From a virus, in the IMG/VR virus record IMGVR_UViG_3300025112_000005, positions 1 through 64,000 of that record: 64,000 nt of DNA; one strand, given 5' to 3'. Shown one piece after another: positions 30,828-59,397 of the stretch (position 1 is the first letter of the stretch; the number at the start of each line of letters is the position of its first letter). A model generated the notes under the pieces. The model worked only from the letters and a program-made list of their open reading frames with translations. It was not told the DNA's origin and did no database searches. A program made the translations under genes and the position numbers.

Positions 30828-30848
30828 CCGTGTAGGATGGGCGGCGGA

Positions 30849-42383: not shown

Positions 42384-44119
42384 GCTGGTGGGACCGCCTA
42401 CGGGGGCGTGAGCCGGCGCCCTTGGTGGGCAGCGAGGCGTTCACGGACGCGATGGTGGCGATGGCGGTTGACGCGCTGGCAAAGGCGCAGTCGTTGGAGC
42501 CCAAGGGGAAGGCCCCCGAGCCCCAGGCGCACGATATCGACCCGTGGGACGTGTACGCCGCGGTGGGCGATGAGGGGATGCTGGGCCAGCAGCACCTTGG
42601 CACCGCGGGGCTGGACTACACCACGCTCATGTCGATGGCGCGGGTGCCCACGATCGCGGGCATCATCCAAACGCGGGTGAACCAGATCGGGGAATTCGCG
42701 TGGCCCGCGTACGAGGAGGGCTCGCTGGGCTTCCAGATGCGGCTCCGCGACCGGGAGAAGACCCCGACCAAGGCACAGCAGAAGCGCATCCACGAGCTGA
42801 CGGATTGGATGGTGAGCTGCGGCGACGAGCGTATCGGCTTCGAGCTGAACATGGAGAGTTTCCTACGGATGCTCATGCGCGACTCGCTGACCTACGATCA
42901 GGCGACGTTCGAGGTGGTGCGCACGAAGGGCAAGGACGTGGCGGGGTTCGTGCTCGTGGACGCGTCCACGGTGCGCCGTGCGATCCCGACCGAGGAGGAG
43001 CGCGACGCGGGGATCCGGCGCAAGGACGACCAGATCGCGTTTGTGCAGATCTTGGGCGACGAGGTGGTGGCCGAGTGGACGGCGCGGGACCTTGCCTTCT
43101 GCGTGCGGCGCCCGCGGTCGGCAATCGCGATCCAGGGGTACGGCTACCCCGAGCTGGAAGACCTGATCCGGGTGATCACCAGCATCCTGCACGGCGAGAC
43201 CTACAACGCGAACAACTTCACGCACGGGATGCACACGGCGGGGATTCTGGCTCTCAAGAGCAAGATGAACCCGAAGATGTTCCGAGCGTTCCGGCGCGAG
43301 TTCTATGCGCTGATGAGCGGTGCGTACAACGCCAAGAAGACGCCAATCGTACAGCTCGACCCGGACGCGAAAGAGGAGCTGCAAGCTATCAACTTGAGCC
43401 AGTCCAACCGGGATATGGAATTCAAGGAGTGGATGGCATACCTCCAGAAAGTCGCGTGCTCGATCTACCAGATCGACCCCGCCGAGCTGGGCTTCGTCCA
43501 CGGGGCGGAGAACCAGACCGGCGCGCTCTCCCAAGGCGGCCCCGAAGCGCGCATCACTGCGTCGAAAGAGAAGGGGCTGCGCCCGCTGTTGCGTGGCGCC
43601 CAGGTGTGGCTCAACCGCTGGGTCGTGTCCCAGGTAGACCCGGACTTCGAGCTGGTTTTCGTCGGGCTCGACAAGGCCCGGCAAGATGCGCAGTTCGAGG
43701 CGGACCTGAAGCGGCTCAAGGGTTTTATGACGCCCAACGAAATTCGCGCGCGCTACGACCTGAAGCCCATTCCGCCCGAAGTCGACGGCGGCGCGGCCGA
43801 CATGATTCTGGATTCGTCGTACATGAACACGGCGATGCAGCTCCGCCAGATGGCCCAGATGGACGAGGAGGGCGGCGAGGAGCCCGGGGGCGGCGGGGGC
43901 GAGGAGCAGGGCGACGAGTCACAGGGCGAGGAGCCCGGCGAAGAGACCGATGCGTCGCAGGGCTGGGACATGGACGACGACGACGTGGACCTGGACGCGC
44001 TGTTCGGTGGACCCCAAGGCGATGAGCCCGACGACGACGACGACGACGACGAGGACGAGGACGAGGACGACGACGACGACGACGAGGACAAGGTGAAGAA
44101 GGCGCTGGTGGAGGTCTAG
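42380..44119 (+). CDS. Portal protein
   Basis: IIQTRVNQI, RDSLTYDQ, GYGYPELE, DMEFKEW, YQIDPAELGF, SKEKGLRPLL, TPNEIR; very acidic tail. Confidence 0.93.
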   Translation: MSWWDRLRGREPAPLVGSEAFTDAMVAMAVDALAKAQSLEPKGKAPEPQAHDIDPWDVYAAVGDEGMLGQQHLGTAGLDYTTLMSMARVPTIAGIIQTRVNQIGEFAWPAYEEGSLGFQMRLRDREKTPTKAQQKRIHELTDWMVSCGDERIGFELNMESFLRMLMRDSLTYDQATFEVVRTKGKDVAGFVLVDASTVRRAIPTEEERDAGIRRKDDQIAFVQILGDEVVAEWTARDLAFCVRRPRSAIAIQGYGYPELEDLIRVITSILHGETYNANNFTHGMHTAGILALKSKMNPKMFRAFRREFYALMSGAYNAKKTPIVQLDPDAKEELQAINLSQSNRDMEFKEWMAYLQKVACSIYQIDPAELGFVHGAENQTGALSQGGPEARITASKEKGLRPLLRGAQVWLNRWVVSQVDPDFELVFVGLDKARQDAQFEADLKRLKGFMTPNEIRARYDLKPIPPEVDGGAADMILDSSYMNTAMQLRQMAQMDEEGGEEPGGGGGEEQGDESQGEEPGEETDASQGWDMDDDDVDLDALFGGPQGDEPDDDDDDDEDEDEDDDDDDEDKVKKALVEV

Positions 44120-46593
44120 TGCTCGACCGCATCCTGGGAGAGCTGGAGAACCACGAGCGGTGGGCGCGGTGGCACGAGGGCACGCGCCGGGGCGACTGGC
44201 ACCAGCGGCAGATCCAACGCATCACCGAGCGACTGGCCAAGTGCGAACGGCGCCCCGTAACCGGCGCCCCCTTCCACGACATGCTCGCCAAGGCGCGAGC
44301 GCACAAGTACATCCGGCGCGTGCCCAAGCCGGGCGGGGGCTACCGCTACTTCTACGACGTGGCGGGGGCTCGCGGGCTCGCGCACAATGATGAGCTGGTC
44401 GAGGGCGCGAAGTTCAAGCACGAGGGCGGGCACATCGAGGTTGTCGCCCAGCACGGTGACCGGGTGCAGATCCGGCACGACGAGTCGGGCGAGACCCTGA
44501 CCGTTGACCGGGAGGAGCTGCGCCAGAAGCTCCACGAGTACCACGCGGAGAGCATCGCCGAGCACAAAGAGAAGACGCGGCGCAGCCTGGAGGAGACGGG
44601 CCGCCACGGGAGCGAACGGCAGAAGGCCCGCGAGGAGAAGAGGGCCGCCCGGTACGCGTATTGGGATGCTCCCGCGGTGCGGGCGCTGCTGTACCCCAAG
44701 CCCGCGGGGCTGGAGCATGAGCCCGCGCGCTCCAAGCCCGTTCACGTCGTCCCGTACAGCCAGATTGACCGCACCTGGGAGCGTGATATCCCCGCGCTGG
44801 CGAAGGCGGGGCTGAAGACGTACGACGACCTGCACAAAGCCGGGCCGGACAAGATCGCCGCGGTGCTGGGGCGGGGGCGGCGAGACGCCGCGCAGCAGCT
44901 TTGGCGCACGGCGGACATGCGCAGCGGGTCGAGCAAGGCGCGCGCGAAGAAGCTGCACGAGACCGACCACCCCGATTGGGTGCCGGATCTGAGTCAGTAC
45001 GACGTGATTCTGGTGAACACGTCCGGGGGCAAAGACTCCCAGGCGATGATGGACCGGACGCTGGAGCTGGTCGATTCGCAGGGCATCGACCGAGCCAAGG
45101 TGGTCGCCGTACACGCCGACCTGGGGCGCGTCGAGTGGGAGGGCACCAAAGAGCTGGCCCAGGCGCAGAGCGACCACTACGGCATTCGCATGGAAGTGGT
45201 GAAGCGCCAGAAGAACGACCTGCTTCAGCACATCGAGCAGCGGTACTACCAGCTCACGAACCGGATCGCGGACACCAAGGCGCTGGGCGGGCTGGAGACC
45301 TGGGGCGACCTGTACGACATGCTCCCCGAGCCGAAGGGGAAAGGCGCCGCGGAGGAGCGGCGTTGGAAGGCGGAGAAGGCGGCACTGGCAGAGCAGATCG
45401 CCGCGCGGCTCCCCGATGCGCACACCGATTTTTGGCCGCCCGACTTCGAGGGCAACCCGAGCCTGCACCACACCGTCGACAAGCTGATCCGTGCGAAGTA
45501 CATCGTGGACAGCGCGGTGAGGAATCGGAACGCGGCTACCAAGTGGGCGGCCAAGAGCGAGAAGGCCAAGGCGAAGGACAAGCGGCCGAAGCTGGCGGGG
45601 GATTCGCTGGATTGGGGGATGCCGAACCCCTGGCCGGACAGCGGGGCGCGGTTCTGCACTAGCGAGCACAAGCGCGCCAGCATCCGAGCGCTGATCACGA
45701 ATCTGGTGACGGCGCACAAGAAGGCCAACCCCGGCACGGGCAAGCCGCGCATCCTCAACACGATGGGGTTGCGTGCGCAGGAGTCGAGCGAGCGCGCAAA
45801 TAAGCTGCTGTTCGAGCACGACAAGGACACCAGCTCCGGCGCGCGGTCGGTGGACACGTACTTGCCGATCAGTGGGTGGTCCGAAGAGGAGGTGTGGGAC
45901 CGAATCCGTGAATCGGGCGTTCCGCACCACGTCGCCTATGAGCTGGGGATGCGGCGGCTGTCGTGCGTGTTCTGCGTGTTCGCGGACGGGCACGACCTGC
46001 TGACCGCGGCGGCCAACAACCCCAACCTGTTCAAGCAATACGTGGAGCTGGAGAGGCGCTCCGGGTTCACGTACCAGCAAGGCAAGTTCGCCAAGGAAGA
46101 CGCGGCGAAGATGGCGGAGTCACACCCCGCGTACGCGTCGTTGGCGGGGAAGCCCAAGAGCTTCGCGGCGGTCGACGAGGCGCTGAAGACGTTCGCGGCG
46201 GAGAACCCCGAGGGGTTCCGCGTGATGCAGCAGATCGCCGAAAAGAAGAAGGAACAGCACGCGGTGCTGGGGCTGGTCGCCAGCGACGACCTACGGGCGC
46301 TTCTGAAGGCGCTGGGCGTCGATGACGACGACGGTACGCACACCCTGCTGTCGGCGCTGCACCACAACCTCGCGCAGCTCCGCAAGGCGGGGATGAAGGT
46401 GCACGCGGTGCAGTACGATTACCGCCCCAGCGGCGCGGTGGTGCAGCTCGACACGGAGCACGACTCGTTCTTCTGCGGCTCGCTCCCCTACCCAGAAGCC
46501 TACGCAGGAAGCACCGCAGCGGCTATCATGGCGCGGGCCGCGGGACTCGACTACGAGGAGCACGGTAGCCCCGATCAGCAGGAGGCGGTGTGA
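44119..46593 (+). CDS. Giant modular protein 4: PAPS-reductase-like (PP-loop) domain
   Basis: SGGKDS, HADLG..EW, WP...RFCTSEHK, GLRAQES..R, LPI..W.E.EVW, RLSCVFC; N-terminal LAKA + KYIRRVPKPGGGYRYFY tag. Confidence 0.88.
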   Translation: MLDRILGELENHERWARWHEGTRRGDWHQRQIQRITERLAKCERRPVTGAPFHDMLAKARAHKYIRRVPKPGGGYRYFYDVAGARGLAHNDELVEGAKFKHEGGHIEVVAQHGDRVQIRHDESGETLTVDREELRQKLHEYHAESIAEHKEKTRRSLEETGRHGSERQKAREEKRAARYAYWDAPAVRALLYPKPAGLEHEPARSKPVHVVPYSQIDRTWERDIPALAKAGLKTYDDLHKAGPDKIAAVLGRGRRDAAQQLWRTADMRSGSSKARAKKLHETDHPDWVPDLSQYDVILVNTSGGKDSQAMMDRTLELVDSQGIDRAKVVAVHADLGRVEWEGTKELAQAQSDHYGIRMEVVKRQKNDLLQHIEQRYYQLTNRIADTKALGGLETWGDLYDMLPEPKGKGAAEERRWKAEKAALAEQIAARLPDAHTDFWPPDFEGNPSLHHTVDKLIRAKYIVDSAVRNRNAATKWAAKSEKAKAKDKRPKLAGDSLDWGMPNPWPDSGARFCTSEHKRASIRALITNLVTAHKKANPGTGKPRILNTMGLRAQESSERANKLLFEHDKDTSSGARSVDTYLPISGWSEEEVWDRIRESGVPHHVAYELGMRRLSCVFCVFADGHDLLTAAANNPNLFKQYVELERRSGFTYQQGKFAKEDAAKMAESHPAYASLAGKPKSFAAVDEALKTFAAENPEGFRVMQQIAEKKKEQHAVLGLVASDDLRALLKALGVDDDDGTHTLLSALHHNLAQLRKAGMKVHAVQYDYRPSGAVVQLDTEHDSFFCGSLPYPEAYAGSTAAAIMARAAGLDYEEHGSPDQQEAV

Positions 46594-49500
46594 GCCAGCT
46601 CGGACTCTTCAGCCACGTGGTCCAACAGGCGACGGCGAAGCCGAAGCCGAAGCCGAAGCCGAAGCCCGGGGGACACCACCACCCGCCCCCCGGCTACCAC
46701 CCCGCGCCCCGGAGCCGTAAGGGCGGCTGGACGGACGGCAAAAACTACTGGTACCCCGGCGATCCGCACCCGAAGCCCCGGGCGGCGGCAGCCGAGCCCG
46801 AGCCCACTCCGACACCGCACCCGGAGCCCGTGGCGCCTACGACACCCCCGGAGCAGGCCACCGTGTTCGGGGGCGAGCACAGCAGCGTCACGCAGGAGCC
46901 CGAGGAGACACCCGCGCCGACGGAGCCGACCCCCGCGGTGGTGGTTGAGCCCGCGGCCGAGCCCGAGCACGCCAAGCCTGACGAGCTGTGGGCAGACGAA
47001 GACGACGATTTTGACGACCCCGACGGCGACGGCTTCGATCTGTGGGACCTGATGGCCGAGGAGGGCGTGGCAGCGCCCGAGGAGCACGAGGCGGAGCTAC
47101 TACACCCCGACTGGTCGGCGGAGCCGAGCGAGCGCCCCCAGGGGCAGGCGGAGCTGGTGGGCGAGGAGGAGGAGCCCGCGGAGGAGCCCGCGGAGGAGCC
47201 CGCGGAGGAGCCGGGGACCGAGCAGGAGACTGAAGCCGACGACATGGCGCGTCGGATGCAGGAGCGGTTGAAGGAACGCGCGGCGCAAGAAGGCGCGGAG
47301 CGCGAAGCCCGTGTGGCGGCGGAAGAAGCGCAGCTCGCCGAAGAGCTGCGGCTGGCGTCCTTCGCGTATGGCTACGAGGTGCCCCAGCACGCGGTGCTGC
47401 CCCGGGAGCTGGACGAGAAGGCCCGTTACCGGCTGTGGGTGAAGGACGGCGACGCGTGGACGCGTGTCGATGAGCCGGAGGGGGTGTTTCGGCACAAAGG
47501 GGGGATGTTCCGAGGCGCTTGGGTGCGTCCCGTATGGGACCGGACGCTTGAGGCGTACGAAGGGCAGTCCCCCGTCTTCATGCCCAGCGACCGCGTTCCG
47601 GCGTCGGAGGCGTTGGGCGCGCTGATCAAGATCGGGGAGCACGAGGTCAGTCCCGACCGACCGCCGAATTTCCTGGGGTTGATCCCCGAGAAGCTGGTGC
47701 GTCGGCGCCTTGTCACGGTGGAAGACGAGGACGGGAAGCCCGTACGGGACGAAGATGGCCGGTTGGTCCAGAAAGAGGGCGCGCTGGCGGGCGCGGGTGC
47801 GTCCCGGCAATACCGGGATTACTACAGCGGCAACCTCGTTTGGGCGCACGACAACATCCAGTCCCAGGATTGCACGGACACGTGGCTGATCGAGTCGGGG
47901 TTCTACGACGCGGTGCAGGGTCCGGCGACGGGGACCGACCGGCATGGCGAGCCGATCAGCCTGTCCGACCAGCAGCGCGACCGGCGGCTGGCGGTGCTGC
48001 ACAGCAACGTCCAGGGCATCGACTGGCTGAAGCTGCGGGAGCAGAAGCACGTCAAGATCTGGGAGAAGACGCAGCGCGATTTGACGGCGTGGTGGACCAA
48101 CATCACCAACGAGCAGCGCGAGCACTTCTGGACGAACTACTGCCACCGGGACAAGCAGAACACGCTGGCGAAGACTGCGGATCCGCGCCATGAGCTGGCG
48201 GAGTTCGCCGTGCCGAAGGGCATGGAGAAGATGTCGGCGCTGCGGGGTCCCTACTGGCGGGAAGACGCCACGACCTGGGCAGACGCAGAGCACACGATCC
48301 CGTGGCACGACCGGGACCCCGACAACCCCAAGCACGGCAAGCCGTGGGACTTCCACGTCTACCAGAAGAAGGCGGCCAACTTCGTCGTGGACCATGCGCC
48401 GCGTTCCATCCTCGCGATGGAGATGGGGCTGGGCAAGACCCTAACCGCGCTGGGCGCGTTCCACGAGCTGAAGCAGCGCGGCGAAATCGACCAGATGATC
48501 GTAAGCGCCCCGGTGAGCGCGATGGGGAGCTGGGAAGAGCACTTCGGGGATCTGTCCGACGCGCGGGTGGGCATCGCGAACGGATCCAAGAAGCAGAAAG
48601 AGCGGGTCGTCCAGCAGTTCGAGCGCGGCGAGCTGGACGTGTTGGTGGTGACCACGGACGCAATCGCCATCGACATGAAGAAGGCGAAGGAGCTGGACGA
48701 GGTTCCCAAGGGCGCCAACAAGGTGACCCTCAAGATGAAGGGGAGCTATCGAGGCGCGACCTGGGAGACTTCGTTTCTCCACCGACGGACGGACGGGGAG
48801 GGTTTCTCGATATTCCCTGATACGCGCAAGCTGGCGGGGTGGGATGACATGCGTATAAGCCTGGGCAATCCGCTGGGCTACCAGAAGCACGCGCATGACG
48901 AGGAGCGAAGGCGACAGAGCGGCGGTAAGAGCTACAGCAATGCTATGGCGGAGGCCCGTCGCGCGATCTTAGAGGAAGCGCCCGAAGGGGCCACTATGCA
49001 GACGTACGACGGCTACCTGCGCAAGATGGCTGACGGCACGTGGGCCGCACCGCGCGAAGATCGGGGCGGGTGGAAGGCCGGGAGGCGTACGTCTGATTCG
49101 ATCTGTGGGCGGGGGGATCTGACGGTCTGCTCTGCCCGACACTTGTCCGGCGAGGTGAAGCGCATTCAGCTGGATGCGGGGGATGTCAAGCTCGCGTACG
49201 AGAATCCCGAATCCAACAAGGCGCGTCTCCAGGCGATGATGGAGGCCAAGGGGAAGCGGACGCTGCGCGTTGCCGACGAGCTGCACAAGTTCAAGAACCC
49301 CAACAGCAACCGCGCCCGTGGCTTCTTTGACGTGTTCACCGAGCCCGAGGGGCGGGTGATCGGAATGACCGGCACGCCCAAGCCCAACGGGATGCAGGAC
49401 TTTTACACCATCATGGACCACGTGGCACCCGGCAGCCTGGGCGACACCTACGCCGATTTCTCGGAGCGGTACAGCTACCGTTACCGGGCGTTCGGGGCGG

Positions 49501-50555
49501 ACAAGGTGGCGGGGCTCCGGCCCGAGCAGTTGCCGAAGCTGTACGAGGACAGCGCGCACGTGATGTTCGTGCGGACCACCAACGACCCGGACAGCAAGAT
49601 CATCTTGCCCAAGCGCCGCGACCTGTCCCCGTCGATCCCCCTGTCCGATTTTCAGGAGAAGGTCACGACGGCCTTTGGCGAGTGGGTCGCGGTGAAGCGC
49701 GTGATCCAGATCCTCGGCAACCGGGAGAACCCCGGGCCGGAGTACGAGGCGGCCGTGGAGAAGCTGGCGGCGGCTGAGCGCGGAGACATGGGGAGCGTTG
49801 CCCAGGTGGCCGCGTCGGGGGCGCATACGGACGCGCAGGTAATGCTGATGCGTGCTCAGCAGCTTGCGATCAGCCCGTCGTTGCTGTCCCCCGCCTGGGG
49901 CGAGGCAAACCCGGGGTATGAGTCGCCGAAGACGAAGCTGGTGGCCGATTCGTTTCAAGAGCACATGAGCCAGCAGCCCAGCACGGGCGGCGTGATCTTC
50001 TGCACGTTCAACGACGGAATCGCGGAGATGCAGCGGGCGTTGGTCCGGCGCGGGTTCCGTGAAGACCAGATCGCCGTCTACAAAGGCGGCGTGACGCCCA
50101 AGAAGCGCGCGGAGATCCAGAAGAAGCTGAACAGCGGCGAGCTGAAGGTGGTGCTGGGCAACTCGGCGTCCCTACAGACCGGCGCAAACATGCAGAAACG
50201 CGCCAATTTTGTGGCGCACCTGTCGACCCCGTGGGCTCCCGACGCACTCACGCAGAGCACGGCGCGCGTGTACCGGCAGGGGCAGCAGAACGTCACCACG
50301 ATCCTGCGCCCCGTGGGGTCCGACGCGGAGGCGCTGGTGGAGCGGGTGGTCAGTCGCAAGCTAATGGAGGCGGGGCAGGCGACCGGCAAGACGATGGCGG
50401 CGGACAAGGCGGTGGCGGAGACTGTCCGCGGGGCCAAGCTGGACGCCGCATCAATCGCGAAGGTGCTGGGCATCGACCCCGCGAACTTCGGCAGCGAAGA
50501 GCTGACCGACGCGCTTCGTGAGGAGCTGGGCATGGAGCTTCCCGAGGAGGATTGA
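46590..50555 (+). CDS. Giant modular protein 5: SNF2-family helicase (DarB-like role)
   Basis: YQKKA, EMGLGKT, DELHKFKN, MTGTP, SPK, TGANMQ, PW.P, QSTARVYRQGQ; N-terminal QLGLF and GYHPAPRSRKGGWTDGKNYWY tag. Confidence 0.9.
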   Translation: MSQLGLFSHVVQQATAKPKPKPKPKPGGHHHPPPGYHPAPRSRKGGWTDGKNYWYPGDPHPKPRAAAAEPEPTPTPHPEPVAPTTPPEQATVFGGEHSSVTQEPEETPAPTEPTPAVVVEPAAEPEHAKPDELWADEDDDFDDPDGDGFDLWDLMAEEGVAAPEEHEAELLHPDWSAEPSERPQGQAELVGEEEEPAEEPAEEPAEEPGTEQETEADDMARRMQERLKERAAQEGAEREARVAAEEAQLAEELRLASFAYGYEVPQHAVLPRELDEKARYRLWVKDGDAWTRVDEPEGVFRHKGGMFRGAWVRPVWDRTLEAYEGQSPVFMPSDRVPASEALGALIKIGEHEVSPDRPPNFLGLIPEKLVRRRLVTVEDEDGKPVRDEDGRLVQKEGALAGAGASRQYRDYYSGNLVWAHDNIQSQDCTDTWLIESGFYDAVQGPATGTDRHGEPISLSDQQRDRRLAVLHSNVQGIDWLKLREQKHVKIWEKTQRDLTAWWTNITNEQREHFWTNYCHRDKQNTLAKTADPRHELAEFAVPKGMEKMSALRGPYWREDATTWADAEHTIPWHDRDPDNPKHGKPWDFHVYQKKAANFVVDHAPRSILAMEMGLGKTLTALGAFHELKQRGEIDQMIVSAPVSAMGSWEEHFGDLSDARVGIANGSKKQKERVVQQFERGELDVLVVTTDAIAIDMKKAKELDEVPKGANKVTLKMKGSYRGATWETSFLHRRTDGEGFSIFPDTRKLAGWDDMRISLGNPLGYQKHAHDEERRRQSGGKSYSNAMAEARRAILEEAPEGATMQTYDGYLRKMADGTWAAPREDRGGWKAGRRTSDSICGRGDLTVCSARHLSGEVKRIQLDAGDVKLAYENPESNKARLQAMMEAKGKRTLRVADELHKFKNPNSNRARGFFDVFTEPEGRVIGMTGTPKPNGMQDFYTIMDHVAPGSLGDTYADFSERYSYRYRAFGADKVAGLRPEQLPKLYEDSAHVMFVRTTNDPDSKIILPKRRDLSPSIPLSDFQEKVTTAFGEWVAVKRVIQILGNRENPGPEYEAAVEKLAAAERGDMGSVAQVAASGAHTDAQVMLMRAQQLAISPSLLSPAWGEANPGYESPKTKLVADSFQEHMSQQPSTGGVIFCTFNDGIAEMQRALVRRGFREDQIAVYKGGVTPKKRAEIQKKLNSGELKVVLGNSASLQTGANMQKRANFVAHLSTPWAPDALTQSTARVYRQGQQNVTTILRPVGSDAEALVERVVSRKLMEAGQATGKTMAADKAVAETVRGAKLDAASIAKVLGIDPANFGSEELTDALREELGMELPEED

Positions 50556-50556
50556 C

Positions 50557-50760
50557 ATGGACACAGATCTGACCCCCCAAGAGGCTACGGAGCTGCTTCG
50601 GATGCTCTGCCCCGTCGGCGGGATGAACCCCGCGGAGCCGGAGCCCGTGGAGCGCGCGCGGTTGTGCCGGCGCCTCTACGACCACATCAAGGCGGACAAC
50701 GGGCTGGTGCCCAACTGGCTCAAGCACGACGTGTCCAACATCGTCGGCCCCGCTGCGTGA
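50557..50760 (+). CDS. Small hypothetical protein
   Basis: GGAGG RBS; stop overlaps the next start. Confidence 0.55.
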   Translation: MDTDLTPQEATELLRMLCPVGGMNPAEPEPVERARLCRRLYDHIKADNGLVPNWLKHDVSNIVGPAA

Positions 50761-53700
50761 GCAGCGGACCCTTCATCGGCCCCCGGGGCGGGAAGTGGGC
50801 AGACGCCCAGCACACCGTCCCGTGGCATAGCTCCGAGGGGCGCGACCGGAGGCAGACCAGCCTGCTGGGCGCGGACGACGAGGGCACCAAGCGAAAGAAG
50901 CCCCTGCAACGACTGCGTGAGGGGGAGGTGATGGCGTTCCTCCAATCGCACGGGCACCGAGCGGGGAGCCATGCGGAACCGGGCGGTCACGGAGAGAGCG
51001 GGGTCCACACGCGCCAGCACTCCCGGCAGCAGGTCGAGGTGCGGCACGTCGAGTCACACCACCGGGACCACACGGGGCGCATCCAGCTCCCGGGGGGGGA
51101 GCACGAGGCTCTGAAGAAGCACGAGGCCCGCCAGCACGCCAAGGTGGTGGAGAAGCTGAAGGCTGCGGGGTATCACGTGCGCACGGACGCCGTGGGGCGG
51201 ACGCTGGTCGGTCGGCGAGGGGGAGCGCCCGAGCACGGCCCCCAGCGTGTGCAGGCGGCGAGGCCGAAGAAGAAGCTGGAGCTGGTGGTGGACAACACGC
51301 AGCCGGGGCTGTTCAAGTCGATGGTGGTCCGAGCGCTGTGCAAGGCGCAGGGAGGCCCTTTCATCGGCCCCCGCGGCGGCAAGTGGGCGAACGCCCAGCA
51401 CACGGTCCCGTGGAAGCCCAGCGGCGGGGTGTTGCGGGTGGACGCGGCCCTTGTCCGTGAGACTGTGGACGGGTGGTTTTCTGACTTGCGAGCGATGCCG
51501 GGACAATCCCGGTCGTCCATGATCGAGTACACCCAGGCGGACGGGGCAAAGCGTCGCGCGGTGGCACAGATCGTTGTAGAGGCGAGCACGGGCGATCCGC
51601 GAGGCGTGAAGGGCATCCACCATTACCGGACCACGGGGCAGGGGGGGATGCACAAGGTCGTTGTGCACATCAGTATGCGAAAGCTGGCGGGGAAGATTGA
51701 TACAGCCAAGGAGGCGGTGCGTTCCGTTCTTGCGCACGAGCTGACACACGCGGCCGACGTAGGGCTCCAGAAACGCGCAGAGCGACGCGCACGTGCTCAT
51801 TTCTCAGGGGACAGTAAGGGCGCCGAGCGTCTGAGGGCGAGGGACCATAGCGACGGGTCGGCCAACTACTTCAACCAACCGCATGAAGTCACAGCGAAGA
51901 TGCAGCAGATTCAGCGGGAGTTGTTGGACCCGGGTGTGGGGGGCGCGCTGGTCGAGGATGCAAAAAACCACGCGGACGACCCAGACAACCCGCCGCCGAT
52001 GACGCCCGCGCAACTGCTTGAGTGGGAGAGCCCCTCCTGGGGTGAGGTGAAAGAGCACTATACCCCCGAGAACAAGAAGCGTGTGCTGCGTATGGTGGCG
52101 AAAACCCATGCAGCGCTTTTGTCGGGAGAACTGGAGCCTGTGAAGAAGGCGGGGCCGTTCTCCTACATGGTGCTGGACGCGCTGGCGAAGGCCGCGAAGG
52201 GCGAGAGGCGGCAGGGCGCGAAGTACATTCGGCGCGTGCCCAAGCCCGGGGGCGGCTACCGCTACTACTACGCGGAAAGCAGCGCGGCGCGGTCGGCGAC
52301 CGAGGGCGAGGACGTGCGGCTGGGCGACAAGCTGACCCGGGTCCACAAGGTCCATGCGCACGGTATTGAGATCGAAGACGAGAAGGGCAAGCGCACAGTC
52401 TCGCACGACGAGTGGTCCCACATGCTGCACGAGCATTACGGCTCGCGCTTCTACGAGTGGGCAGAGAAGCGCGCGCGGCAGTACGCGGGCGCGGTGCTCA
52501 AGCACGTTCCCGCGGAGCTGTTCAACGAGCTGAAGGGCGAGACCGACGCCGAGCGCATGGCGGACCTGAAAACCCGGCTGCCCGACGTGCACGCGAAGCT
52601 GGAGAAGGCGTTTTCGCGCGCGGGCGTCAGTCCCGAGGATGCGCACCGCGCTATCTCGCACGTGCTGGAGCGCAAGGGGTGGACGGGCGGCGCCCGGCAA
52701 ACGCTCCTGGGGTCGATGCTCAACCGCGAGACGGCGTGGACCGTTCGGCACTACCGGAGGCTGAGCAAGGCCGCGGAGAACTTGGCGAAGGCCGACGGCG
52801 CGGAGCTGGTCGACCAGAAGCATGTTGCGGCGGCCATCGCGTTGCCGCGCACGGCGACGGCGATGGACCGCGTGGTCAACCGCGCGACGGCGGAGATGCA
52901 CCACATTCGCGCGGTGCTGAAGCTCCAGCTAACCCCGGGGGAGAAGAAGGAGGAGCAGGGCGCGCTGGCGCTGGACACGAAGATGTCCGCTGAGGCGCTG
53001 GCAAAAGTGCGCGCGGCGCACATGATCGGCCAGCTCTCTGTGATGGCTCAAGCGTTCCCGGGGCTGGCGTCGGATCCGGCCATGCAGCAGCTTCGTGTGC
53101 TGCTGGGCAGCCTTCAGTCCGTGGCTCCGCGCACGGAGCCGACGGCGAAGGGCGCGCAGACCACGGTGTACGTCGCGGGCGAATTCGGTTCCCCCGAGCC
53201 CATGACCGCGGAGTACGCGCTGGTCGACGCGGCCGAACTGACTGCGAGCCACGACCCCGTGACGTTCGCGCAGAACGAGGCGCACGACATCGGCAACGAG
53301 CGCGCGTATCACCGCGACAAGGCCGAGCGGGCGAAGGTGATCAAGAACGCCGAAGACCTGAAGCCGGATCTGGTGATCAACACCAACCCGGACGCGACCA
53401 ACGGCGCCCCCATCGTGGACGAAAACGGGGTGGTGTTGGGGGGCAACTCGCGCACCATGTCCATGCAGCGCGTTTACCGGATGGGAGGCGCCCAGGCGGC
53501 GGACCTGAAGGGGTACCTGAAGGGACAGGCGCGACAGTTCGGGTTCAAGCCCGGCGACGTGGAGGCGATGGCCCAGCCGATCCTCGTGCGGAAGGTCCAG
53601 CCCCACGACGACGACCACAAGCGGCTTCTGGTGCGCCAGCTCAACGAGACGTTCATGCAGGCGATGGATCCGCGCACGATGGCGGTCGCGCAGGCGGCGC

Positions 53701-55166
53701 GGCTGGACGACAAGGCGCTGGAGGCGCTGGCCACCGACATGGGGCCGGACAAGACGCTGGCGGCGTTCCTGGGGGCGAAGGCATCTGACGGGTTCGTGAA
53801 CCAGCTCAAGCGCGCGGGCGTGATCAGCGCCCAGAACCAGAACGCGTACATTCGCAAAAACGGGCGGCTCAACGAGAACGGCCGGCAGCTCGTGGAGAAC
53901 GTGCTGGTGGGGAAGGTCGTCGGCGACGCGGACCTGCTGGTGGACCTGCCCCAGCCGCTTGTTGGGGCGCTCGCGCGTGCCGTGCCGTACATGGTGCAGG
54001 CGGAAGGGGCAGGGGCGGCGTACAACATCCGTAGTGAGCTGAAGCACGCGCTGGAGGCGTACACCGACATCAAGAACCGGCCTGAGTTCGGCATCCCGAA
54101 GAGCAAGAAGGAAGCAGCGGCGGTGCTGGAGTCGTGGAAGCGACTCGGCGGAGGGCTCTTTGAGGGTCACGAGGTGTTCAAGAACCCGCGCAGCATGGCG
54201 ATCCTGAACACCCTGTTCACGCAAGCCGGCCCGCGGCAGATGGCCGCCGTGTTCCGCAAGTACGCGGAGGCGGCGGGGCATCAAGAGGCGGGTGGCGGCG
54301 AGGGGCTGGGCTTCTACGAGAAGAAGACCCCCGACGACGTGTTCGGAGAAGCGTTCGGCCGGGCGGAGGACGAAGAGGCGGCGCAGGAGAAGGCCAAGGC
54401 CGCGCGTGAGAAGCACGTGGAGGAGACCAAAGCAGAGGCCAAGAAGAAGGCCAAGGCGAAGGCGGAGCGCGAGGCCCAGAAGGAAGGGCCGCGAAAACTG
54501 TCTGACCTGCCCCACGTGAGAGACGACCCGTGGGACGATGGGACGACGGTTGTTTTTCGACAAAGCCCGTTCCCCAAAGGGGACAAGCCCGCTATTTCAA
54601 GCAAGCTGATCAGCTCCGCGAAGGTCGAAAGCGTGAAGCTGGCGGACCTTCAGGGCTCACAGACCGAGATCACAGAGGTCGGGGTAGAGAAGCACGCGAA
54701 GGCCCCCGACGCGACCACACCGACAAGCGAGCTACCCGTGGTTATTCGTACAGCGGACGGGAAGCACATTATTCAGGACGGGCACCACCGGCTTGCGGCG
54801 GCTGTTTTGCGGGGAGATAAAGACGCCCGTGTGCGCGTGGCGGTCGAGCCCGGTGCCAAAGAAGCGCCCGCGCCGAAGGTTGAGCCCGAGGCGCCCGCGG
54901 TCGATCACGCGGCCAAGGCCGAGGAGCACGACATCGCGGCGGAGAACATGCCCGGCAAGTACCCCGGGCACGCGTGGACGAGCACGAAGGAAGCGGCCCA
55001 GGACGCGCACACCGCGGCGGAGAAGGCGCACCAGAAGGCGCACGCGAGCCCGACCGCGGAGAACAAAGCAGCAGCAGCGGCGGCGACCAAGAAGGCCGAG
55101 GAAGCGGACGCGGCTTCGGAGAAGGAAGAGGCGGACGCGGCAGCGTCGCAGGGCGGGTTGTTCTGA
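50757..55166 (+). CDS. Giant modular protein 6: zincin + DdrB-like ParB + second ParB/Srx domain
   Basis: AHELTH...YFNQPHE; YALVDA.EL.ASHD...ER.Y...NGAPIVD..GVVLGGNSRTM; LPVV...IQDGHHR; GTG start 50757; C-terminal QGGLF. Confidence 0.85.
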   Translation: MSSGPFIGPRGGKWADAQHTVPWHSSEGRDRRQTSLLGADDEGTKRKKPLQRLREGEVMAFLQSHGHRAGSHAEPGGHGESGVHTRQHSRQQVEVRHVESHHRDHTGRIQLPGGEHEALKKHEARQHAKVVEKLKAAGYHVRTDAVGRTLVGRRGGAPEHGPQRVQAARPKKKLELVVDNTQPGLFKSMVVRALCKAQGGPFIGPRGGKWANAQHTVPWKPSGGVLRVDAALVRETVDGWFSDLRAMPGQSRSSMIEYTQADGAKRRAVAQIVVEASTGDPRGVKGIHHYRTTGQGGMHKVVVHISMRKLAGKIDTAKEAVRSVLAHELTHAADVGLQKRAERRARAHFSGDSKGAERLRARDHSDGSANYFNQPHEVTAKMQQIQRELLDPGVGGALVEDAKNHADDPDNPPPMTPAQLLEWESPSWGEVKEHYTPENKKRVLRMVAKTHAALLSGELEPVKKAGPFSYMVLDALAKAAKGERRQGAKYIRRVPKPGGGYRYYYAESSAARSATEGEDVRLGDKLTRVHKVHAHGIEIEDEKGKRTVSHDEWSHMLHEHYGSRFYEWAEKRARQYAGAVLKHVPAELFNELKGETDAERMADLKTRLPDVHAKLEKAFSRAGVSPEDAHRAISHVLERKGWTGGARQTLLGSMLNRETAWTVRHYRRLSKAAENLAKADGAELVDQKHVAAAIALPRTATAMDRVVNRATAEMHHIRAVLKLQLTPGEKKEEQGALALDTKMSAEALAKVRAAHMIGQLSVMAQAFPGLASDPAMQQLRVLLGSLQSVAPRTEPTAKGAQTTVYVAGEFGSPEPMTAEYALVDAAELTASHDPVTFAQNEAHDIGNERAYHRDKAERAKVIKNAEDLKPDLVINTNPDATNGAPIVDENGVVLGGNSRTMSMQRVYRMGGAQAADLKGYLKGQARQFGFKPGDVEAMAQPILVRKVQPHDDDHKRLLVRQLNETFMQAMDPRTMAVAQAARLDDKALEALATDMGPDKTLAAFLGAKASDGFVNQLKRAGVISAQNQNAYIRKNGRLNENGRQLVENVLVGKVVGDADLLVDLPQPLVGALARAVPYMVQAEGAGAAYNIRSELKHALEAYTDIKNRPEFGIPKSKKEAAAVLESWKRLGGGLFEGHEVFKNPRSMAILNTLFTQAGPRQMAAVFRKYAEAAGHQEAGGGEGLGFYEKKTPDDVFGEAFGRAEDEEAAQEKAKAAREKHVEETKAEAKKKAKAKAEREAQKEGPRKLSDLPHVRDDPWDDGTTVVFRQSPFPKGDKPAISSKLISSAKVESVKLADLQGSQTEITEVGVEKHAKAPDATTPTSELPVVIRTADGKHIIQDGHHRLAAAVLRGDKDARVRVAVEPGAKEAPAPKVEPEAPAVDHAAKAEEHDIAAENMPGKYPGHAWTSTKEAAQDAHTAAEKAHQKAHASPTAENKAAAAAATKKAEEADAASEKEEADAAASQGGLF

Positions 55167-55501
55167 TGCGGGTGGGACTGAGTGAGAGCTACCCCGGGGA
55201 GTTGGAGGAGCTGGGACCGCTGGGGGTCATGCAGAAGGCCGAGGCGGGGCTCCATGCAGCGCTGCGCGACCTGGGGCACCCCGAAGCCGCTGCTGCGCTG
55301 GCGGGGCGTCTGGATGCACTTCTCGACGCTGAGCGGGCGCTGACCGACGTGTACGAGGCGGGGGAGCTGCGAAAGGCGCTCCCACCGCGCGGGGGCGAGC
55401 TGGACGTGGTGCAGATGCTCGCCGACCGGATGGGGGGCGCGTACGACGCGATGGCCGCGCGCTTGGAGAAGCGGCTACGGGAAGCGGTCGACCGTGGCTG
55501 A
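55166..55501 (+). CDS. Small head-module protein
   Basis: ATG overlaps the upstream stop; contains MQKA and LRKA. Confidence 0.6.
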   Translation: MRVGLSESYPGELEELGPLGVMQKAEAGLHAALRDLGHPEAAAALAGRLDALLDAERALTDVYEAGELRKALPPRGGELDVVQMLADRMGGAYDAMAARLEKRLREAVDRG

Positions 55502-56534
55502 TGACACGTTGTCCCGCGTCGTGGCGGACCTGATCCGCGAGCATCACGAGGCGTTTCTGGTGGCGCTGCTGGGGCGGGACGCAAGCACCGTCCCCCCCGA
55601 GCGCATCGAGGAGCTGCTGGCGTCCGGCGCGCTCGACCCGCACGCCATCGGCCGCGTGCACGTGGCTGTGGGGGACGAGCACTTGAACCCCTACGAGTAC
55701 ATGCGGCTGGTCTCGCGGGCGTACGCCAAGCTGGGCGACGACGACGCGGTGGCGGCGCGGACGTGGGGTTTCTCCGATTGGGAGCCACACGTGATCCGCG
55801 AGCTGGAGAGCGCGCGGGCGGAAGACGTTCGCCCCGCCGAGGCGCGCGCGCACGTGACCGCGGCGCGTCCCGAGCCCCCCGACCTGGAAGCCGGCGCGGT
55901 TGAGCCCAAGGCGCCTGGGTGGATGACGCCCCAGGAGCGCGCCAGCCACCGTGAGGCGCTGCTCCGTGCCGGGTCGTATGCGCGTGGGCTGGGCAACGTC
56001 TACGCTGCGGACTTGAGCACGAAGGCGGAGACCTGGACGGGCGAGCAGATCGAGCAGGAAGCGAACGCACCGCAGCGCGCGCAGATGCAGCAGGTGATTC
56101 GGGAGCACGTGGCCGAGGCCATCGCGACCCACCGCGACCAGGAGAAGCTGGCCCGGGATCTGGCTGAAGCGACGGGGTTCTATTCGCACAACTGGCGGCG
56201 GATCGCGTCCACTGAGCTGCAAGGCGCCCACAACCTGGGCATGGTGGAGGCGGCGATCGACGCGCACGGCGAGGCGGGCCGCGTGGCACGCATCACCGAG
56301 TCGGGCGCGTGTGAGCACTGTCTGCGGTTGTTTCGAGACGCCGAGGGCAAGCCGCGAGTGTTCGAGGTTCGCGAACTATTGGAGAACGGGACCAACGTGG
56401 GGCGCAAGGCAGCTGCGTGGCTCCCGACGGCGTGGCCGGTGCATCCAAACTGCCGCTGTGACACGCGGATTGTACCGCCTGGGCGAACAGTCACCGCTGA
56501 TGGTAGGATCCGACGCGAGGAGACCGCGGCATGA
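55494..56534 (+). CDS. Minor head protein (MuF/SPP1 gp7 family)
   Basis: WRRIASTE, ACEHC, PVHPNCRC. Confidence 0.88.
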   Translation: MADDTLSRVVADLIREHHEAFLVALLGRDASTVPPERIEELLASGALDPHAIGRVHVAVGDEHLNPYEYMRLVSRAYAKLGDDDAVAARTWGFSDWEPHVIRELESARAEDVRPAEARAHVTAARPEPPDLEAGAVEPKAPGWMTPQERASHREALLRAGSYARGLGNVYAADLSTKAETWTGEQIEQEANAPQRAQMQQVIREHVAEAIATHRDQEKLARDLAEATGFYSHNWRRIASTELQGAHNLGMVEAAIDAHGEAGRVARITESGACEHCLRLFRDAEGKPRVFEVRELLENGTNVGRKAAAWLPTAWPVHPNCRCDTRIVPPGRTVTADGRIRREETAA

Positions 56535-57214
56535 GCTACGACACCCCCGACGACCTGGGCGACTTCCGCTTCTGGTCCCCCCTGCTGGTCAAGGCCGACA
56601 ACCCCAACGGCGGGTTTGGTGAGGTGGCGCTGGGGAAGATCGGCGGCGTGATCAGCTCCGACACCGTAGACTTTCAGGGCGAGACGCTGGACCAAGACGG
56701 CGTGGATTGGTCGTACTTCGAGGCTCACGGGCTCTTGAACTACAACCACACGGCGCTGATCCTGGGCGAGCCGACCGCGGTGATTCGCAAGGGCGGCCGA
56801 ACGCTGATGGAAGGCGTGCTGTACCTGCACCAGCCCAAGGCGCGCGAGGTCTACCAGACCGCCGTTGCGATGCGCAAAAGCGGTGCCCGGCGCAGCTACG
56901 GCTTCAGCGTCGAGGGCAAGGTGTTGGAGCGCGAGCAGGGGAACCCCACGAACGTCCGCCGCGCCCGGGTGATGAACGTGAGCGTGTGCGAGCACCCCGT
57001 GAATCCCGACGCGCGTATGACCTTGCGCAAGGCGCTGAGTGTGGGCTACCAGACCGCAGCAGGCATGGACGGCGGTTTCTCCCCGCTCGTGCCTCAGAGC
57101 TTGGAGGGCAGCGTGGCGCTGTCCACGTTCAAGCGGGAGCTGTTGGGTCAGTTTCCCCGCCTGACTGATGATGAATGTGACGCTGTGGCACGGCGAGTGC
57201 TTCACTTGCCTTGA
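56531..57214 (+). CDS. Prohead protease (HK97/U9 fold)
   Basis: GVISSDTVDFQGE, NYNH, GFSVEG, VSVCEHPVNP. Confidence 0.88.
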   Translation: MSYDTPDDLGDFRFWSPLLVKADNPNGGFGEVALGKIGGVISSDTVDFQGETLDQDGVDWSYFEAHGLLNYNHTALILGEPTAVIRKGGRTLMEGVLYLHQPKAREVYQTAVAMRKSGARRSYGFSVEGKVLEREQGNPTNVRRARVMNVSVCEHPVNPDARMTLRKALSVGYQTAAGMDGGFSPLVPQSLEGSVALSTFKRELLGQFPRLTDDECDAVARRVLHLP

Positions 57215-57276
57215 CCGCGGATCGCGACCCGGTGAGAATACCGACGTGGGGTGACCCCCCCGAGGAGACGACGAAG

Positions 57277-57909
57277 ATGCAGACGCGAGACCAGATCATC
57301 GCGGCGCTCCGTACCGCGGGGGCCGACGAAGAGACAATCAGCAAGGCGCTGGCCGAGCTGGAGCCGACCACCCCCGAGAACGACGCGCTGGGCAAGAGCC
57401 TGGGCGACCTGCGTGCCGCGTTCGACCGCGAGCACGCCGGACGCGACGAGGATCTGGCCAAGAGCCTGGACGAAGCCGCCGATCTGGTGGACGCCGTTAC
57501 GAAGGGCTCCGACCTGATCCTGGCCGAATTCCGCGCGCAGAACGACGCGCTGGCCAAAGGGATGGTGGCGCTCATCAACACGTCCCGCGACGAGCGCGCC
57601 GAACTGCGTTCGCTGATCGAAGAGGTCCGCGAGCTTCGGCAGGATCGCGAGGAGCAGGACGAGCGCATCGCCAAGGCGCTCTCCGTCCCCCAGGAGCCCC
57701 GTGGGCTCTCCGGGGCCACGCCCGTCCCCACGCCGTCCGAGCGCGTCCTTGGAGGCGCCCCGGAGGCGGGCGACCTGATCAACAAGGCGCTGACCGAGCT
57801 TCAGAGCGCCGACGAGCCCCGCAAGCGGGAGCTTTCGACGGCGATTTCGCGCCTTAACTCCGGCTTCGCTGCGCACGCGGTGGCCCAGGAGTTTGGGTTG
57901 AGCGCCTGA
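57277..57909 (+). CDS. Capsid scaffolding protein
   Basis: Acidic coiled coil between protease and capsid genes; seven [LIV]xK[ASG] sites. Confidence 0.8.
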   Translation: MQTRDQIIAALRTAGADEETISKALAELEPTTPENDALGKSLGDLRAAFDREHAGRDEDLAKSLDEAADLVDAVTKGSDLILAEFRAQNDALAKGMVALINTSRDERAELRSLIEEVRELRQDREEQDERIAKALSVPQEPRGLSGATPVPTPSERVLGGAPEAGDLINKALTELQSADEPRKRELSTAISRLNSGFAAHAVAQEFGLSA

Positions 57910-57954
57910 CACGCGTCGGGTCGCCCCGCGCTGACTGAATAAGGAGATTCCAGA

Positions 57955-59397
57955 GTGCAGTTCCCGAATATGAACCAGGACATGCCCGTCGCGGATCTGG
58001 TCAAGCTCAACAACGCGCTGCGTAAGGCGGCGAGTGTGGGCTACCAAACCGCAGCGGGGACCACGGGCGCCGACGCAGGGACGTTCTCCCCGCTCGTGCC
58101 GCAGAGCATCGAATCAGTGCTGGCTTCGGCCACGTACACGATGCAACACCTTTCGCTGTGGCGTGACATCCCTAAGCGGGACGTGACGCAGACCCTCCAC
58201 GAGTACGCGGTGGTCAACGAACACGGCGCGGACTTGGATCCGTTCTTCGCGGAAGGTTCTGTCCCGGCGACGAACCGTTCTGAATACGAGCGGAAGAGCC
58301 TCAAGATCAAGTACCTTGCCGAGCGGCGCGAGATCACCGACGTGGCCAGCATGGTGGGCCTGATCGGGGTCAACAAGAACGCGCTGGCCGAGGAGACCGA
58401 GAAGGGCACCATCCGGCTGCTCCAGCGCACTGAGCGCGCGTTGTTCCACGCGGACAGCGACATCAACCCGCTGGCCTTCGACGGCATCTTCAAGCAGATC
58501 GAAGACGGCGCGTCACAGAACGTCACCGACATGGACGGCGCCGCGCCGACCCCCGACCTGCTGGGCGAGATGCTGGGCGAGCTGTACGCCGCACCCAACT
58601 ACGGGATCGCGGACTGCATCTACGTCGAGCCGCGCATCCACCAAGAGCTGATCCGGCAAGCGCAGGCGCACGGGCGTCACGACCAGCTCAGCATTCAGGA
58701 CAGCACCAAGCTGACCTGGGGCGCCAAGGAGCTGTGCATCATGTCCCCGTACGGGCCGGTGCCGATCCGCAACGCGCCGTTCCTGTACAACAAGTGGCCC
58801 GTCCCGATGAACGTGGACAAGCAGGCGATCCGTGTCGCGGGCATCGGCGACGTGATCCCCGACACCCCGCAACTGGACGCAGGTCCGGCATCCCCCCCAG
58901 ACGGCGCGTCGAAGTTCACCGCGGCCGACGCGGGCGACTACGAGTATTACATCGAGGCAGTCGGGGCGAAGGGCGTAAGTGCCGTCTTCTTCGCTGGCGC
59001 CGCCGCGGTGGCCGTGGTCGCAGGCGACAAGGTGACGTTCACCATCAAGGGCGACGGACTCACCAACGCCCCCGCCTACTACCGGATCTTTCGATCGGCC
59101 AAGGACGGGGGCTACAAGACCGCCCAGCTCCTCACCGAGCTGGCGTACACCGCGGGTATGGATACGGCGTTCGAGGACTACAACGCGGAGAAGCCCGGCA
59201 CGTCCAAGATCCTCGCGGTCAAGCACGATCCGGGGATCATCGAGTGGGTGAAGCTCCTCGACTTCCTGCGGCGCCCGCTGGCCGAGGTGGAGACCACCAA
59301 GCCCTTCCTCCTGATGCTGTTCGGTGCGCCCATCATCAAGGTTCCGACCAAGACCTGGGTGCTCAAGAACTGCGGCGTCAACACGGCGGGCCTGTAA
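57955..59397 (+). CDS. Major capsid protein (Herelleviridae-like)
   Basis: AAGGAG RBS; ALRKA-SVGY..., PQSIE, LWRDIPK, HEY, FFAEG, ERALFHADS, AFDG; Ig-like insertion. Confidence 0.92.
   Translation: MQFPNMNQDMPVADLVKLNNALRKAASVGYQTAAGTTGADAGTFSPLVPQSIESVLASATYTMQHLSLWRDIPKRDVTQTLHEYAVVNEHGADLDPFFAEGSVPATNRSEYERKSLKIKYLAERREITDVASMVGLIGVNKNALAEETEKGTIRLLQRTERALFHADSDINPLAFDGIFKQIEDGASQNVTDMDGAAPTPDLLGEMLGELYAAPNYGIADCIYVEPRIHQELIRQAQAHGRHDQLSIQDSTKLTWGAKELCIMSPYGPVPIRNAPFLYNKWPVPMNVDKQAIRVAGIGDVIPDTPQLDAGPASPPDGASKFTAADAGDYEYYIEAVGAKGVSAVFFAGAAAVAVVAGDKVTFTIKGDGLTNAPAYYRIFRSAKDGGYKTAQLLTELAYTAGMDTAFEDYNAEKPGTSKILAVKHDPGIIEWVKLLDFLRRPLAEVETTKPFLLMLFGAPIIKVPTKTWVLKNCGVNTAGL

Follow-up and report, generated by a model that had tools for sequence, protein, structure and literature searches.

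In phage T4, a single enzyme removes the capsid propeptide, breaks the scaffold core into small peptides, processes itself and takes the short N-terminal leaders off packaged proteins (IPI-III, Alt) (PMC9026906, PMC9024508). The cleavage motifs that we have found in the literature are L-x-E for T4 and A-x-E for phiKZ and SPN3US, and the capsid protein of phage P1 is cut at E120|S121. The HK97 prohead protease gp4 (MEROPS S78) reportedly cleaves gp5 at K103|S104 and is said to be encapsidated through a terminal segment. Cleavage of the capsid protein after lysine is already known, from HK97 as well as from the Listeria phage A511 and the Staphylococcus phage K/phi812, and a search of a limited paper library has returned no lysine consensus extended to scaffold, portal, protease and cargo leaders, nor have the papers on JBD30, Pa193, 7-7-1 and D3 contained a lysine consensus. 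The present analysis concerns 64,000 nucleotides of virus DNA (IMG/VR record IMGVR_UViG_3300025112_000005, positions 1 to 64,000, hereafter the window), which contain the head module of an uncultured phage (80-kb genome, parent record 80,205 bases; guanine-cytosine (GC) content of the window 68%). In this module a tetrapeptide with lysine in third place, [LIV]xK[ASG], recurs in the scaffold, the major capsid protein, the prohead protease and the portal, and also in giant open reading frames (ORFs) that may encode packaged cargo. The motif very probably represents the site of the prohead protease in the scaffold, in the capsid leader, at both flanks of the protease and at the ends of the portal, and the same enzyme probably also trims short address leaders off packaged cargo. 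Judged from sequence comparison, a lysine-specific counterpart of the T4 scheme, with its L-x-E code and its capsid targeting, appears likely, with a single protease serving scaffold, capsid, portal, itself and the leaders of the cargo.

The lysine motif in scaffold and capsid

Motif copies were compared with an expectation from residue shuffles that preserve the composition of each protein. The scaffold gene (57277-57909; like all sites and the genes from portal to capsid, it lies on the + strand) starts at an ATG behind a GAGGAG Shine-Dalgarno sequence, with the frame open also from a TTG at 57211, and its product of 210 residues contains the motif seven times (ISKA, LGKS, LAKS, VTKG, LAKG, IAKA and INKA), in agreement with the original prediction, from which every listed instance has been recovered. 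The lysine codons of these sites are found at 57343, 57394, 57460, 57502, 57556, 57673 and 57784, and cutting at all of them would yield fragments of 14-40 residues. Only 0.46 copies are expected, and none of 200,000 shuffles has given seven (binomial probability ∼1.5e-8). The motif occupies seven of the eight lysines of the scaffold, while none of its 18 arginines stands in the corresponding place. For the other proteins the predicted L22-R23-K24-A25 of the capsid protein, LVKA (residue 19) and LRKA (165) of the protease, and LAKA (33) and VKKA (572 of 579) of the portal are likewise present, to which IRKG (85) and MRKS (114) in the protease and LDKA (430) in the portal have been added. Counts against expectation are 3 vs 0.4 in the protease (p = 0.005), 3 vs 1.0 in the portal (p = 0.08) and 1 vs 1.4 in the capsid protein, and the seven giant ORFs are at expectation (2/2.1, 1/1.1, 3/3.0, 4/3.9, 5/2.4, 3/2.7 and 8/5.1, observed/expected). 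Regional counts, for which genes were called by third-position GC and methionine was also allowed at P3, amount to 11 vs 6.7 expected for the early genes, 32 vs 26.7 for giant ORFs, portal and MuF-like protein, 11 vs 0.97 for protease and scaffold, and 2 vs 4.0 for capsid and tail genes. Of the proposed difference in motif density between head and replication proteins, the excess in scaffold and protease has remained and that in the rest of the head and cargo set has not; the excess over chance is confined to these two proteins.

The same use of lysine is found throughout the relatives of this phage. With the capsid protein as sole query, no match has been obtained among genome contigs or viral contigs; more than 300 metagenomic homologues of the capsid protein have been collected, and an alignment-based scan of viral contigs has led to 80 loci, of which 55 have a scaffold-sized ORF directly upstream of the capsid gene. 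These represent 48 distinct sequences, or 49 with that of the window, and range in GC content from 35 to 68%. Together they contain 317 sites where 50 are expected, with 4-11 copies in each scaffold instead of about one. When all 20 residues were scanned at P1, the position directly ahead of the presumed cut, lysine alone has been found enriched (6.3-fold, z = 38), compared with 1.07-fold for arginine, and in a register test the exact motif has kept its 6.3-fold excess against 0.5- to 2.4-fold for shifted or reversed forms. Four columns of the scaffold alignment carry the motif in 40-45 of the 49 sequences and two more in 17-24, and six of the seven sites of the window are kept in a complete relative with direct terminal repeats (G001, 77.9 kb, 60-70% identical). 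The extended consensus reads [D/E]-x-[L/M/I/V]-x-K|[G/A/S]-[L/M], with methionine as common as leucine at P3 in the relatives. Such strict use of lysine, especially in a genome of 68% GC in which arginine outnumbers lysine two to one, is hard to explain by helix structure, and it is what a P1-specific protease would be predicted to select. Arginine as an alternative P1 residue, suggested by an I-A-R|S in long proteases, has been countered by the absent arginine enrichment in the scaffolds.

In the major capsid protein (57955-59397, 480 residues, SU10/Herelleviridae type) the single motif copy closes a predicted propeptide of residues 1-24 (57955-58026), which ends in L22-R23-K24|A25. Across 38 homologues (49-80% identity), L22, R23 and K24 do not vary and P1' is restricted to A, S or G, with an indel hot spot directly behind, all within a surrounding that is conserved over some 40 residues. 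In a profile search of the PDB, with E values from 1.8e-48 (SPO1 gp6.1) to 3.6e-38 and 1.8e-38 for phi812 (5lii), K24|A25 has been aligned to V-V-K24|S25 of the phi812 precursor (5lii_P, 463 residues), and the chain 9row_B, with 439 residues (463-24), begins at S25. The statement that the A511 capsid protein is matured at a Lys-Ser bond some 23 residues in has proved correct, as its GenBank mature peptide begins at codon 24, after A-L-K23. By alignment, K24|A25 is the homologue of the maturation sites of A511 and phi812. A wider tblastn search has matched 160 phage records, with 22-27% identity to the capsids of Herelleviridae and of Thermus and Pseudomonas phages.

One could instead regard the scaffold motif as a structural repeat, formed by capsid-binding or coiled-coil helices, with the LRK of the capsid protein kept for the function of its N-arm. 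The fairly regular spacing of the motif in a helical scaffold rich in leucine and alanine would fit this, as would the conserved stretch of some 40 residues around capsid K24. A structural repeat would tolerate arginine, yet arginine takes the place of lysine neither in the window scaffold nor beyond chance in the family, even at 68% GC; moreover, the position in the capsid protein coincides with the recorded mature N-termini of phi812 and A511, and the motif is also found at the ends of portal and protease and in cargo leaders, which are not helical repeats. We consider this explanation very improbable compared with selection by a protease.

Prohead protease and portal

The protease gene (56531-57214, 227 residues) sits between portal/MuF and scaffold/capsid, in an order that is the same in the relatives. 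An AlphaFold2 model of its product, with a predicted local distance difference test (pLDDT) of 76 and a confident core of residues 34-152, has found its top Foldseek match in T4 gp21 (5jbl, probability 1.0, template-modelling score 0.54), followed by herpesvirus assemblins. H73 and S126, the latter within GFSxEG, are invariant in 28 protease homologues and would form the catalytic pair. Ahead of this core, the leader DFRFWSPLLVK ends in the candidate site L-V-K21|A22 (56585-56596) and belongs to a type that can be written as F-[S/A]-x-W-...-L-x-K. At least 90% of the 28 homologues keep K21, an indel hot spot lies next to it, and residues 24-31, after the predicted cut, are modelled with a pLDDT below 50. 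The protease of most relatives measures ∼330 residues and has an extra N-terminal domain of ∼85 residues (MPxxNEHxARQ...) ahead of the leader; this domain is seen in the loci L003, L006 and L010-L049 (alignment columns 13-100) and is absent in the window and a few relatives, so that the N-terminal site falls at a domain junction in most relatives.

Behind the core, the candidate site L-R-K167|A168 (57023-57034) lies within a low-confidence stretch of the model (residues 163-194), is kept in G001 and separates the catalytic core from a copy of the capsid cleavage site and N-arm. This copy covers 41 residues (165-205, 57023-57145) and aligns to capsid residues 22-66 with 58% identity (BLASTP, E 5e-11), where the alignment opens at LRKA in both proteins. 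It has been found in the protease of most relatives, of Staphylococcus phage Koomba-kaat_1 and Pseudomonas phage Touem01, and in A511 gp84, a spread across the lineage that marks it as an old feature of this type of capsid. Probably the copy docks the protease inside the shell, at the place where the capsid N-arm binds. The further motif copies at residues 85 (IRKG) and 114 (MRKS) have been considered as autolysis sites and rejected, since both lie in the confident core of the model; they are treated as structural or as chance.

The portal (42380-44119, 579 residues; Pfam Phage_portal, E 3.2e-20) has candidate sites near both ends, L-A-K35|A36 (42476-42487) and, after an acidic tail, V-K-K574|A575 (44093-44104). 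Both are kept in G001; the copy in the middle of the portal is not. Nearly all relatives of which the N-terminus has been recovered have an [I/L]-x-K-A at residues 20-35, and in ∼10 of 15 the motif directly follows the acidic C-tail and is itself followed by 5-11 residues ending in V-x-V-E-[L/I]. Three loci (L026, L028 and L033) encode a portal with a fused extension of ∼300 residues, and the C-terminal motif is found exactly at the junction. These fused portals (L026:1175-3802, L028:1684-4281 and L033:248-2896) show the motif also at two further internal positions.

Leader units in the giant cargo ORFs

Large ORFs with matches to LPD1, ddrB-ParB, SNF2, PAPS_reduct and DUF6884 lie near the portal at 42380 and the MuF-like gene at 55494, in the manner of the polyvalent proteins described by Iyer et al. 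2017 (PMC5512222), which are giant ORFs beside portal/MuF with LPD1, DdrB-ParB, SNF2, PAPS-reductase-like and zincin modules. Between portal and MuF these are a PAPS-reductase-like ORF (44119-46593, Pfam PAPS_reduct), an SNF2 helicase (46590-50555, with SNF2 and Helicase_C matches) and an ORF with a DdrB-ParB and an HExxH module (50664/50757-55166, ddrB-ParB E 4.8e-21); further giant ORFs start upstream at 24130, 28370, 30837 (DUF6884), 36039 and 38208 (LPD1), of which three span 24130-27225, 30837-34799 and 38208-42383. The motif copies that had been assigned to module borders have been confirmed at 24157, 30867, 32304/32394/32463, 42303, 44284, 51309/51336 and 52140/52182. The claim that cleavage after lysine sets the boundaries of polyproteins has found no support from numbers: the cargo-class ORFs of the relatives contain 84 motif copies where 80.5 are expected, and when three cargo ORFs were compared with G001, lysines within the motif have been conserved in 7 of 17 cases (2/5, 1/4 and 4/8 per ORF), against 89 of 228 for other lysines (24/53, 17/71 and 48/104). 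Chance accounts for most motif copies in the giant cargo genes, and LEKA at 52599, LSKA at 52761 and IPKS at 54093 look like such cases. The part of the claim that has held is a subset identified by comparative anatomy, consisting of 24157, 30867, 32463, 44284, 51336, 52140/52182 and the C-terminal site 42303, because these sites match ORF starts or conserved terminal peptides in relatives.

The clearest unit concerns the PAPS-reductase-like ORF, in which residues 52-178 match the N-termini of 22 cargo ORFs from other relatives, several per phage (23 BLAST hits when L001, a close relative of the window, is counted). These 22 ORFs open with a leader of ∼11-14 residues that ends in [L/F/M/A]-K-[A/G] and is followed by G-H-[K/R]-Y-I-[K/R]-R; in the window, the candidate leader site L-A-K|A (44284-44295), kept in G001, stands right before a KYIRRVP tag. 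The same leader-plus-tag unit recurs at 52182, where an internal leader reaching from V-K-K|A (52140) to L-A-K|A (52182) (52140-52193) leads into the KYIRRVP tag and the DdrB-ParB module, and G001 has a unit at the same junction. In the same ORF an internal leader ending in L-C-K|A (51336; 51309-51347) is followed by a second GPFIGPRGGKW tag and by a zincin-like module of ∼250 residues (51339-52142, HExxH as HELTH at ∼nt 51735). The homologue in G001 starts with a leader ending in I-A-K|A, then GPFIGPRGGKW, and is without window residues 242-493, that is, the zincin-like module between the two leaders; the locus L070 likewise has a leader ending in K|G ahead of this tag. A small ORF of ∼67 residues (50557-50759) ends in a GTGA overlap with the GTG at 50757, whereby the giant ORF listed from 50664 probably starts at 50757, and with this start the first GPFIGPRGGKW tag would stand at the very N-terminus, without a leader.

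Upstream of the portal the picture is similar. ORF 30837-34799 has an N-terminal L-I-K|A (30867-30878) and an internal L-V-K|A (32463-32474), each followed by a Y-x-GKG...PG-Y-Y-Y tag, which in G001 ORF 19094 is preceded by a leader ending in I-L-K|A. ORF 24130-27225 has an N-terminal L-A-K|A (24157-24168), and its G001 counterpart combines a leader ending in L-R-K|A with the same AAGQxxxFG motif. For 30867/32463 and for 24157 the comparison is suggestive of leader sites. At the C-terminus of ORF 38208-42383, in which an LPD1 domain (E 8.5e-21) ends at residue 1361, L-R-K|G is followed by the terminal peptide GSIFGxMVxDRL (42303-42383); in G001, L-T-K|S precedes this peptide in the ORF just upstream of the portal, behind unrelated domains.

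Of 122 ORFs that lie upstream of the protease in the loci, 54 show the motif within their first 40 residues, where 14.7 are expected, compared with 28 of 169 tail ORFs (17.9 expected). A signature of the leader, which was written after both protein classes had been seen, has given 38 matches in 338,000 residues and one in shuffled sequence; 35 of these are located at the protease leader or at cargo N-termini and the other three in the extra N-terminal domain of long proteases. Short N-terminal leaders that end in the motif are accordingly present on non-structural, putatively packaged ORFs, as is typical of capsid-targeting sequences, and the leader units coincide with ORF starts and, in G001, with an indel border.

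For the giant ORFs, processing could also be left, if it occurs at all, to embedded zincin-like metallopeptidases, K[ASG] then being chance or an uncut packaging signal. The HExxH (HELTH) module in ORF 50664-55166, the autoprocessing by metallopeptidase domains that has been proposed by Iyer et al. 2017 (PMC5512222), and the absence of motif enrichment or excess conservation in the cargo all agree with this. It does not account for leader sites that are positionally conserved at ORF starts in many relatives, with K always before A, G or S, nor for the resemblance between cargo leaders and the leader of the protease itself; and G001 lacks the zincin module of ORF 50664 and yet retains leader units. 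We regard this explanation as unlikely, though it is the strongest of those set against processing by the head protease. Somewhat less probable still is that the mature proteins retain their leaders and terminal peptides as signals for capsid targeting or portal docking, in which lysine forms a recognition surface and not the scissile position. Precedent exists in phage P1, where an N-terminal signal of 30 residues in DarB targets proteins to the head (PMC9024508). However, the leaders close with the very tetrapeptide found in excess in the scaffold and again where the capsid protein is matured, and the internal copies often have a second K|A just ahead of the leader.

Following the K|A of leaders or the starts of ORFs, four kinds of short aromatic/glycine tags have been noticed, KYIRRVPKPGGGYRY, GPFIGPRGGKW, Y-x-GKG..PG.Y.Y.Y and GYHP..RSRKGGWTDG..YWY, at 44305-44355, 52221-52271, 50766-50830, 51345-51410, 30880-30953, 32475-32549, 38340-38420 and 46690-46760. 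They are shared by relatives and could bind the capsid interior or DNA. In addition, Q-x-x-L-F(G), a candidate clamp-binding-like motif, recurs near the leaders or termini of giant ORFs and of their G001 homologues (24190-24220, 38230-38265, 46596-46615, 51290-51315 and 55140-55166).

Proposed processing scheme and its limits

From this arrangement we infer one scheme, in which each cleavage, the entry of the cargo into the head and docking through the N-arm copy have their place. A serine protease of assemblin fold (56531-57214) would be built into the procapsid and would cut after lysine in [L/M/I/V]-x-K|[A/S/G], where P5 is often D/E and P2' often L/M. The capsid protein would shed its 24-residue propeptide at K24|A25, and cuts at its seven sites would reduce the scaffold to peptides of 14-40 residues, which at this size could exit the shell. 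By cutting itself on both sides of the catalytic core, the protease would lose its N-leader and be separated from the capsid-N-arm copy, and the portal would be trimmed near both ends. The polyvalent cargo, encoded in the interval between portal and MuF and in part upstream, would enter with short hydrophobic leaders that end in K|[A/G/S] and precede the aromatic/glycine tags; these leaders resemble the leader of the protease and may act like the capsid-targeting sequences of T4. Cuts at leader units in the interior of a giant ORF would release separate products. A further-reaching version, which we hold only tentatively and think somewhat more likely to fail than to hold, is that a shared address-and-cut leader F-S-x-W...L-x-K|[A/S/G] brings protease and cargo into the procapsid and is then removed, that internal copies make some ORFs true polyproteins, that protein packaging in these phages is programmable, and that the code covers the Herelleviridae-like lineage as well.

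The likeness to T4 lies in the fold of the protease, with gp21 as the top match, and the main difference from its (L/I)-x-E code is P1, which is lysine here and glutamate in T4. The cargo differs as well, since giant multi-domain polyvalent proteins with internal leader units are found here. Like HK97 gp4, the protease here would be a serine enzyme of the prohead with lysine at P1 and a small residue behind the cut; HK97 differs in having no separate scaffold protein, its capsid delta domain being the scaffold. In comparison with the embedded metallopeptidases proposed for polyvalent proteins (PMC5512222), the leader units suggest that at least some junctions are processed by the head protease. 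Closest are the Herelleviridae (A511 Cps, Staphylococcus phage K/phi812), which have homologous capsids (profile E 1.8e-38 to 5lii), remove a propeptide of 23-24 residues after the lysine aligned with K24 of the window, show the same gene order of portal, protease, acidic scaffold-like ORF and capsid, and likewise have a capsid-N-arm copy in the protease. In Staphylococcus phage Koomba-kaat_1 the ORF in scaffold position, in the gap between protease and capsid, has eight [V/I]-x-K|S sites against 0.9 expected and the protease five against 1.1, and the scaffold-like ORF of Pseudomonas phage Touem01 has seven against 1.0. The Herelleviridae differ in that their capsid identity is only 22-27% and that no giant polyvalent cargo block lies between portal and protease.

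In addition to the missing enrichment and excess conservation in the cargo, a number of observations weigh against the proposed scheme. Pfam S78 (PF04586) matches the protease with an E value of 0.0027, its 18.3 bits falling just short of the curated cut-off (21), and SU10_MCP matches the capsid protein with 23.7 bits, just below its cut-off of 24.1. At the C-terminal site of the protease, lysine is found in 9 of 28 homologues and arginine in most others, which weakens the case for cutting there everywhere. Co-variation of scaffold P1' usage with capsid P1' has not been found within the clade. The leader signature is affected by having been composed with knowledge of both protein classes, and a position matrix built from the leaders of the relatives alone has given no significant score when scanned over the window, for which reason the similarity of the leaders at 24157, 30867 and 51336 is one of anatomy and not of statistics. 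In A511, finally, P3 of the site A-L-K|S is A and not [LIV], and [LIVM]xK[ASG] is not in excess in gp85, though gp85 contains several K|S dipeptides, so that the rule for P3 does not extend to all of the wider lineage. As a prohead-protease consensus, [LIV]xK[ASG] very probably applies to the scaffold, the leader of the capsid protein, both flanks of the protease and both ends of the portal in this clade, once methionine is admitted at P3; A-L-K|S of A511 remains outside it.

Should the code prove right, the mature termini of all head proteins could be predicted across a large uncultured clade (more than 300 capsid homologues), and it probably extends to the lineage to which therapeutic Staphylococcus and Listeria phages belong. 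It further offers candidates for the signals by which enzymes, among them DNA-modifying, helicase, ParB-like and metallopeptidase modules, are loaded into capsids and set free, and makes the packaging and processing of polyvalent proteins directly testable. As maturation cuts after lysine look like tryptic cuts, standard virion proteomics would miss them.

The cargo block is closed by the MuF-like head morphogenesis protein (55494-56534; Pfam Phage_Mu_F weak, E 0.0018), which has no motif site and has 20 homologues of 40-60% identity in the relatives. Tail-sheath-like genes behind the head genes of relatives suggest that the phage is a myovirus. Within this one genome of 68% GC, the lysine content of the giant ORFs (24130-55166) is ∼5.6%, compared with ∼2.7% in the genes of the early region (1-24000).

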